A DNA stretch of 62,274 nt from Minisyncoccota bacterium. GTDB lineage: Bacteria > Patescibacteriota > Minisyncoccia > Minisyncoccales > RBG-13-42-11. The translations under genes and the position numbers were made by a program. Below the pieces are notes generated by a model. That model saw only the letters and a program-made list of their open reading frames with translations. It was not told where the DNA came from and made no database searches. The stretch lies in assembly GCA_028712445.1 (NCBI GenBank), contig JAQTPY010000002.1, forward strand, positions 1 through 62,274, read 5' to 3'. This document shows positions 14,721 to 14,968 of this stretch, piece after piece (the first letter of the stretch is position 1; each line of letters begins with the position of its first letter).

Positions 14721-14786
14721 TGTGAAGCTTTTAATGACTTATAATTAATCTATTCTAGCAAAAAATCGCTAAAATAGCGATTAATT

Positions 14787-14935
14787 AAAAAACGCCCTTA
14801 AGGCGATTTTCCAAGATATTTTTTAAGAAGCGAACTGGCTACAATTTACTTAATTAACACTAACTGTCTAATCTATATATAATAATATATCTATTGTAAC
14901 CACTTCGCTGCTTAAAACCTGCTTTTTACTAACAA
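14787..14935 (-). ncRNA. Candidate small RNA: long hairpin between a promoter and a terminator
   Basis: Promoter 14940-14968, stem of about 23 bp spanning 14821-14917, terminator 14787-14805, no ORF. Confidence 0.45.
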
Positions 14936-14939
14936 CATA

Positions 14940-14968
14940 AGTATAACATATCTTTTATTATTCGTCAA
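14940..14968 (-). promoter_or_regulatory. Near-consensus sigma70 promoter with extended -10
   Basis: TTGACG-17nt-TATACT with TGn. Confidence 0.7.

Follow-up and report, generated by a model that had tools for sequence, protein, structure and literature searches.

The window considered here, the whole stretch of 62,274 nucleotides that was analyzed, comes from a Minisyncoccota genome of 697 kb in 24 contigs that is estimated to be complete, with an estimated contamination of 2.2%. On its minus strand, upstream of a lapA-family gene, a promoter, a long hairpin and two terminator-like hairpins follow one another, and no ORF of at least 25 aa overlaps positions 14721-15023 on either strand. The question raised by this locus is what such a unit encodes. 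An earlier note, made from the letters alone, had described it as a unit of about 150 nt without a credible ORF, which agrees with the ORF scan, and had proposed a stand-alone small RNA, perhaps 6S-like, or an attenuator of the lapA-family gene.

Organization of the Locus

Transcription of the unit would be driven by a sigma-70 promoter with an extended -10 element (14940-14968, minus strand), which a pattern scan scored at 10/12 with the TG present. Its -35 box (TTGACG) occupies 14968-14963 and its -10 box (TATACT) 14945-14940, with a spacer of 17 nt and the TG at 14948-14947. This is the TTGACG-17-TG-n-TATACT arrangement that had been noticed before, and the promoter is kept in the homologous unit of another genome, G098. 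The RNA is predicted to start with a G at about 14933. Between the -10 box and the first helix lies GUUGUUAGUAAAAAG (14922-14936, minus strand), a degenerate boxA-like remnant that is cut by the predicted start.

The main structural element is helix P1, supported by folding and covariation, in which the 5′ strand UUUUAAG-c-AGCGAA-g-UGGUUACAAU (14917-14893) pairs with the 3′ strand AUUGUAGCCA-g-UUCGCU-u-CUUAAAA (14845-14821). The stem had been estimated at about 23 bp with a G-U pair; it is found to comprise 24 pairs, including one wobble, U14899.G14839, and to be interrupted by a G.G mismatch (14903/14835) and a C.U mismatch (14910/14828). P1 encloses 47 nt (14892-14846), and the A/U-rich enclosed region of roughly 45 nt described in the earlier note is therefore present. 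It is not an open bubble, however, but two short hairpins that are kept in relatives, such that the fold is a three-way junction. The first, P2, is an A/U-only hairpin predicted by folding, AUAUAU-uauu-AUAUAU (14890-14875), and the second, P3, is GAUUAGAC-aguua-GUGUUAAUU (14873-14852). An A-rich junction strand, J3/1 (AAGUAA, 14851-14846), delimited in the alignment of relatives, leads back into P1. The P1-closed fold spans ~97 nt.

Two terminators follow on the same strand, and the pattern scan bore out both of the terminator-like hairpins that had been reported. T1 (14805-14787) consists of the hairpin CGCC-uuaag-GGCG at 14805-14793 and six U, while T2 (14782-14758) consists of the hairpin AAUCGCUA-uuu-UAGCGAUU at 14782-14764 and a U tract, again of six U. 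Counted from the predicted start, the RNA would be ~147 nt long if ended at T1 and ~175 nt if ended at T2. The minimum free energy of a 181-nt RNA from the locus is -55.1 kcal/mol, against -32.1 ± 3.7 kcal/mol in 200 shuffles (z = -6.3), of which none (0/200) folds as well. Beyond the terminators, an extended -10 promoter of lapA, TGcTAGAAT (14760-14752), forms the downstream boundary of the unit, and the lapA-family gene itself (14720-14403, 105 aa; Pfam PF06305, E = 1.3e-13) is a neighbor outside it. To judge from its sequence, the minus strand of this interval carries a self-contained gene whose product is a structured non-coding RNA of ~147-175 nt.

Structure and Selection of the RNA

Selection on the fold was evaluated in an alignment of 25 sequences for P1 covariation and in 19 sequences of type A, the form of the family that has a three-way junction as in the window. 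In the P1 alignment, 93.8% of cells are paired, compared with 33-52% in controls with a slid partner strand; changes on both sides occur at 17 of the 24 pairs, and none of 500 shuffles (0/500) attains the observed values. The pairs in P1 include 68 G-U and only 9 A-C, and this bias, together with the compensatory changes, shows that the structure is selected as RNA, on the minus strand of the window. CM scores are ~110 bits on the forward strand and ~35 on the reverse strand. The earlier note had asked for structural conservation in relatives to be checked, and the fold is indeed kept, with compensatory changes, across genera.

The most conserved part of P1 is the core GCGAA-N-UG opposite CA-G-YUCGC. 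It contains the G.G mismatch and, in most members, an A.C as well, and the U.G pair that corresponds to U14899.G14839 is invariant in type A (19/19 sequences). P2 is present as a hairpin in 17/19 type-A sequences, with a few exchanges of A-U for C-G or G-C. P3, read as GAUUAGAC...GUGUUAAUY, is nearly invariant in type A, with G.U at one pair in 17/19, and because of this near-invariance it has no covariation support. The P3 loop takes up GC-hairpin insertions in three genomes (G006, G090 and G502), and J3/1 carries a 55-nt insertion in G090c. Members outside type A keep P1 and have a different or minimal apex, the latter a 7-nt loop.

A promoter-like sequence, TTAACA-18-TATAAT, was found by pattern scan on the plus strand inside the element (14854-14883), antisense to the RNA. 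Its spacing is broken by the insertions in G006, G090 and G502, and it is therefore not the conserved feature.

Distribution and Mobility

The RNA occurs once in the window genome, where no leader copies are found. The closest relatives of this genome by Obg are MAGs named Minisyncoccales, Nealsonbacteria, Staskawiczbacteria and Paceibacterota/Parcubacteria. By blastn, two other genera of the family contain matches of 82-83% identity that are confined to the RNA, with different flanks. From the window sequence and these two relatives a first CM, R1, was built, and R2 is a broader model. R1 finds the RNA in 3/26 genomes of the window's own family, in 20/151 sampled genomes of the order and in none of ~145 genomes from the remaining orders of the class, while R2 finds it in 27/151 genomes of the order, counts that depend on the reach of models derived from their own matches. 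The RNA is thus present in 13-18% of the genomes of the order, which comprises Minisyncoccales/Nealsonbacteria-like Parcubacteria, and RNA-bearing genomes have 1-6 copies. Type A was found by blastn in 18/401 genomes of the order. It reaches 85-94% identity between different families and occurs in 5/19 genomes of one family other than that of the window. In metagenomes, a pattern scan returned 119 loci, and the 80 that were tested contained one true copy, the others being chance matches.

Such a distribution would also fit a dispensable or selfish mobile element, either a promoter-hairpin-terminator module or a cassette-boundary module, that is spread by recombination and whose conservation reflects recent transfer. 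The patchy occurrence across families (3/26 and 5/19 genomes) and the high identity between families speak for this explanation, as do the arrays of copies that accompany variable small ORFs in hot spots of operons and the position of the window copy in a variable island of 3 kb between dnaX-tRNA and obg, an island that is missing from 25 relatives. It is nevertheless considered unlikely. Compensatory changes in P1 and the excess of G-U over A-C indicate selection on one strand, as RNA; the copies are always co-directional with neighboring genes; each genome has only a handful of them, and no transposase or integrase is found nearby. Mobility and RNA function can, moreover, coexist. DNA-level palindromes of the MITE, REP/BIME and attC kinds were rejected on the same strand bias and low copy number. 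Integron attC sites have the R′′/R′ cores RYYYAAC...GTTRRRY, and the arms of P1 lack AAC...GTT cores.

Synteny in related genomes had been named as a further check, and that with obg is not conserved. The 25 relatives examined, whose Obg is 59-73% identical, have no copy upstream of obg, and there is one weak match only, on the opposite strand. Among the ORFs of the island, Pfam, PADLOC and PHROGs were informative only for LapA and a desulforedoxin-like zinc ribbon. The stretch 15529-16185 (plus strand) of the island, between a tRNA (16330-16401) and the zinc-ribbon gene, holds a 182-aa ORF that is opposed to its neighbors, has no Pfam, PADLOC or PHROGs match and is preceded by a promoter of perfect consensus, TTGACA-16-TGn-TATAAT (12/12). 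Besides the dnaX of the window (16436-17566, minus strand), the genome has another dnaX-like N-terminus, GQEHVVRTLSNAL..., at ~195 on the plus strand of the 2.8-kb contig C6, which may represent a strain variant or contamination of the bin.

Comparison With Known RNAs

The earlier note had recommended a search of Rfam including 6S RNA, and the RNA matches no family in Rfam 15. At gathering scores only tRNAs are found in the window. In 14300-15500, the matches over the element at E ≤ 10 are at chance level, the best being a microRNA precursor with 24.6 bits against a cut-off of 70, and no riboswitch is among them.

In 6S RNA (SsrS, RF00013), the closing stem and the terminal stem are separated by a large central bubble that is mostly unpaired. 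The RNA of the window resembles it in its small size, in its long closing helix around a less-paired center and in having a strong promoter of its own and a terminator, and RF00013 finds no 6S RNA anywhere in the genome (no match in the window at the gathering score, in 14300-15500 at E ≤ 10 or genome-wide at E ≤ 1). These features could be explained if the RNA were a divergent housekeeping RNA, either of the 6S type, sequestering RNA polymerase, or a universal RNA beyond the reach of Rfam models. Such an identity is very improbable. No 6S match appears even at E = 10, the open central bubble and terminal stem are lacking, and the center is instead a conserved three-way junction, replaced in other members by a plain 7-nt loop. 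In addition, the fold of ~97 nt has a patchy distribution for a housekeeping RNA: it is found in under a fifth of the genomes of the order (3/26 in the family and 20-27/151 in the order), often in multiple copies, with arrays of up to four, and mostly in mRNA leaders. The 6S-like reading of the earlier note is not supported on these grounds. Other universal RNAs are accounted for, since RNase P RNA, tmRNA and 5S rRNA, the last on contig C21, are present elsewhere in the genome and the SRP pathway (Ffh, FtsY and 4.5S RNA) is missing from the whole class.

For SRP RNA, neither RF00169 nor RF01854 matches. The SRP54 M domain (PF02978) and the SRP-type GTPase domain of Ffh and FtsY (PF00448) are both absent from the genome, in whose six-frame translation no DTAGR or DTxRxAA GTPase motif occurs, and PF02978 is found in 0/61 genomes of the order and PF00448 in 0/81 of the class. 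SRP RNA was therefore rejected as an identity, its partner Ffh being missing along with the rest of the pathway, and the absence of the RNA is no clue as the SRP proteins are missing as well. Nor is it a discovery, since the loss of SRP in Parcubacteria has already been published (Nelson and Stegen, 2015; PMC4508563).

Several other identities were considered and set aside. A resemblance to helix II of 5S rRNA failed, and the real 5S rRNA of the genome is unrelated. A K-turn does not fit, because in the alignment GAA is Watson-Crick paired with YUC, which leaves no tandem G.A pairs. A ligand riboswitch specific to a pathway is excluded by the lack of a common downstream function, the ORFs that follow being unrelated small proteins (membrane, zinc-ribbon and basic proteins, and KhpA) and lapA having a promoter of its own. 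A leader of DGR targets was rejected for want of any link with reverse transcriptase genes: RVT_1 is not found in the genome of the window, only 3/19 other hairpin-bearing genomes encode a reverse transcriptase, no CM match lies within 1.5 kb of 30 reverse transcriptase genes of the order, and neither ten downstream ORFs nor the Pfam scans of other neighbors yield a lectin-type or FGE-sulfatase match. No description of such an RNA motif in CPR was found in the literature. The RNA family is, as far as these comparisons indicate, uncatalogued, new and specific to the order.

Leader Copies and Their boxA

Most members of the family are placed differently from the copy in the window. The hairpins are found between S16 (rpsP) and KhpA-TrmD, or upstream of RNase HII (rnhB)-L32 (rpmF), and frequently form arrays of two to four co-oriented copies, 0.4-1.8 kb apart, with an SD and a small ORF after each copy. 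In most of 26 loci an ORF on the same strand starts within ~300 nt downstream, and in about half of the loci an SD-like motif lies no more than ~25 nt from P1. The downstream ORFs are mutually unrelated and comprise small membrane proteins, zinc ribbons and basic proteins. Most leader copies have no recognizable sigma-70 promoter of their own, so that they would be internal to operons.

The rpsP-khpA hot spot, a site of boxA-hairpin cassettes in relatives, holds another structure in the window. A GC-rich hairpin of ~96 nt (61338-61433, minus strand; -61.4 kcal/mol for a 121-nt stretch, z = -7.6) without an Rfam match lies between a 131-aa orphan ORF (61511-61906) and khpA (60874-61200), and the orphan ORF has its own promoter, TTGACA-17-TATAAT, near 62033-62005.

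Most loci of the family share a second element. Of 27 loci, 22 have GYTCTTT on the same strand in the 100 nt upstream, whereas the background is 0.056 per 100 nt. The motif is typically (A)UAGUUCUUUGAGAAA, 7-82 nt upstream of the hairpin, and fits the consensus GYTCTTTAANA of boxA as a target of NusB/NusE (Baniulyte et al., 2017; PMC5725501). The same boxA immediately precedes the 16S leader-trailer helix in four of the order's rRNA loci, with UAGUUCUUUAGAG-type motifs in this position in G126, G080 and G087. The unit of the family can thus be described, from these alignments, as a boxA, a spacer and a conserved helix. The same boxA grammar is seen in G006, where the locus L003 (contig C10, 740-1300) has two near-identical modules, each with the boxA GGUUCUUUGAGAGAAAAC and a hairpin with the SD within its 3′ strand, ahead of Cys-rich mini-ORFs of 33-44 aa; these belong to a second hairpin family.

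The copy in the window departs from the strict boxA consensus and reads GTTGTTAGTAA at the boxA position. Its remnant, GUUGUUAGUAAAAAG, shares a G at position 4 with the motif at the boxA place in the 16S leader of its own genome, GUUGUUUGAAG (contig C5, ~800-830, minus strand). A link with Nus factors is consequently supported for the family and not for this copy, which has no strict boxA and whose remnant is cut by the predicted start. The G of GUUGUUUGAAG replaces a near-universal C, other genomes of the order reading GUUCUUUAGAG there.

boxA is the site of NusB-S10, and genes for two candidate partners of the RNA, nusB, identified by tblastn, and rnc, are present on contig C20 of the window genome. 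The Rho RNA-binding domain (PF07497) is not found in this genome, which makes an anti-Rho action of the RNA unlikely. The Nus/boxA system in this organism presumably serves something besides anti-Rho antitermination.

Free-Standing Copies

One other copy has the form seen in the window. In G098, which belongs to another family, a promoter-RNA-terminator unit is 84% identical to that of the window from the -35 box through the terminator, with the same promoter and with the terminator at the matching relative position. Its flanks are unrelated to those of the window, with an RRM-like protein upstream and two unrelated ORFs downstream. Of the stand-alone small RNA proposed in the earlier note, the non-coding, structured unit with its own promoter and terminators is upheld and recurs in G098, and the 6S-like character is not. 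Neither of the two units has a strict boxA or an adjacent ORF. On a different contig of G098 there is, in addition, an array of leader copies of simpler form. In the window, no SD or ORF lies within 90 nt downstream of the RNA, where the two terminators are found instead. The window copy is, on this comparison, a putative derived and free-standing form of the boxA-linked leader family.

The RRM-type protein of G098 (locus L032, contig C22), judged from its sequence to be a glycine-rich protein of 117 aa, ends 68 nt before the RNA gene, which may be a coincidence or mark it as a candidate partner.

The order of promoter, hairpin, terminators and gene is also that of an attenuator or nut-type unit, and most homologues do lead the next ORF. 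The RNA could accordingly be a cis-acting leader or attenuator of lapA-(296 aa)-obg, with T1 and T2 stopping transcription unless read-through is permitted by the folded RNA together with a bound factor or a Nus-type modification of the polymerase. An alternative pairing is conceivable, as the stem of T2 (AUCGCU/AGCGAU) resembles AGCGAA/UUCGCU of P1. This possibility, which the earlier note had raised for the lapA-family gene, is unlikely. The lapA promoter lies after T2, beyond the terminators, and the terminator and TGCTAAGAT recur as a module directly upstream of obg in L067, a relative without a copy of the RNA. The terminators are moreover two in tandem, the boxA is degenerate, and an SD and an ORF are absent from the 90 nt that follow. 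The homologue in G098 is equally free-standing beside unrelated genes, and the genes downstream of the family as a whole share no function. The terminator and TGCTA(G/A)(A/G)AT combination (window 14752-14805, minus strand; L067 2950-2990) is apparently an intergenic module that is reused across this genome family.

Relation to Known Leader Systems

The lambda nut site consists of boxA, a spacer and the boxB hairpin, and an rrn leader of boxB-boxA-boxC followed by the leader-trailer helix. The family resembles both in that its conserved hairpin is preceded, at ~8 nt and sometimes at 20-80 nt, by a boxA, the modules lie inside long operons and NusB is encoded; the likeness to rrn leaders extends to an identical boxA before the 16S leader-trailer helix of the same lineage. 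It differs from lambda nut in its helix of 24 bp, which is conserved at the base and not in the loop, boxB having a stem of 5 bp and a loop that is recognized, and in the lack of a Rho RNA-binding domain in the window genome, where the single copy stands alone and has lost its strict boxA. We know of no N-like protein for this RNA family.

A second likeness is to the intercistronic RNase III hairpins of T7 early mRNA and the RNase III site of the lambda N leader. The hairpins of the family are likewise long and related to one another, contain a small internal mismatch and separate the short genes of polycistronic units, immediately ahead of the next SD. Processing by RNase III would call for at least ~20 bp of double-stranded RNA and a gene for the enzyme, and the 24-bp P1, which exceeds two turns of double-stranded RNA, and rnc on C20 would provide them. 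The three-way junction of type A is, however, conserved far more than a processing stem needs.

The third comparison is with the suhB 5′ UTR, in which a boxA likewise occurs in an mRNA leader outside rRNA and the Nus complex represses translation (Baniulyte et al., 2017; PMC5725501). The family helix would bring the boxA, 5′ of P1, close to the SD, 3′ of P1. The boxA of suhB differs in that it is no more than 50 nt away from the start codon and no structured domain intervenes. The RNA family is, by these likenesses, probably of a nut-like or leader kind, and its representative in the window an autonomous small RNA gene.

Proposed Mechanism

The preferred reading, to which a probability of about 55% is assigned, is that the locus is a self-contained RNA gene of the boxA-linked leader family whose helix is a recognized platform and which here acts in trans. 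P1 would be recognized in a sequence-specific manner, for binding of a protein or for double-strand processing. In operon copies the helix would work together with an elongation complex modified by Nus factors, much like the nut site of a phage or the leader-trailer helix of pre-rRNA, and would punctuate cassette transcripts through processing or stabilization, or through gating of translation. The last is conceivable since boxA and the RBS come to lie side by side through the helix. In the copies of the window and G098, the boxA context would have been exchanged for a promoter and terminators of their own, an arrangement which suggests that the RNA is made as a small, stable, trans-acting RNA. 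The free-standing RNA would then presumably act on the same factor as the leader copies. In the window genome, with its single copy and no leader copies, a cis counterpart for a decoy or trans role is not evident.

A more far-reaching proposal is that boxA and the sequence-specific 24-bp helix, in some members with the conserved three-way junction, together form a nut-like 'licence plate' that lets accessory cassettes reside in essential ribosomal-protein operons without polar effects, with the free-standing copies serving as trans-acting regulators or as decoys that titrate the protein by which the helix is read. This is a speculative extension and probably does not hold. If it were true, it would reveal a host-encoded system of the N/nut type in bacteria without Rho and SRP.

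Significance

Very few functional RNAs are, to our knowledge, known in CPR besides rRNA, tRNA, RNase P and tmRNA. The RNA described here adds a family supported by covariation and possessing a clear grammar, in which boxA, helix, SD and small ORF recur in arrays at hot spots and a free-standing form exists as well. Its inclusion in RNA databases could improve the annotation of Parcubacteria MAGs. The family may also offer a handle on how accessory cassettes are transcribed and processed in these tiny genomes, and on the role of Nus factors in the absence of Rho.
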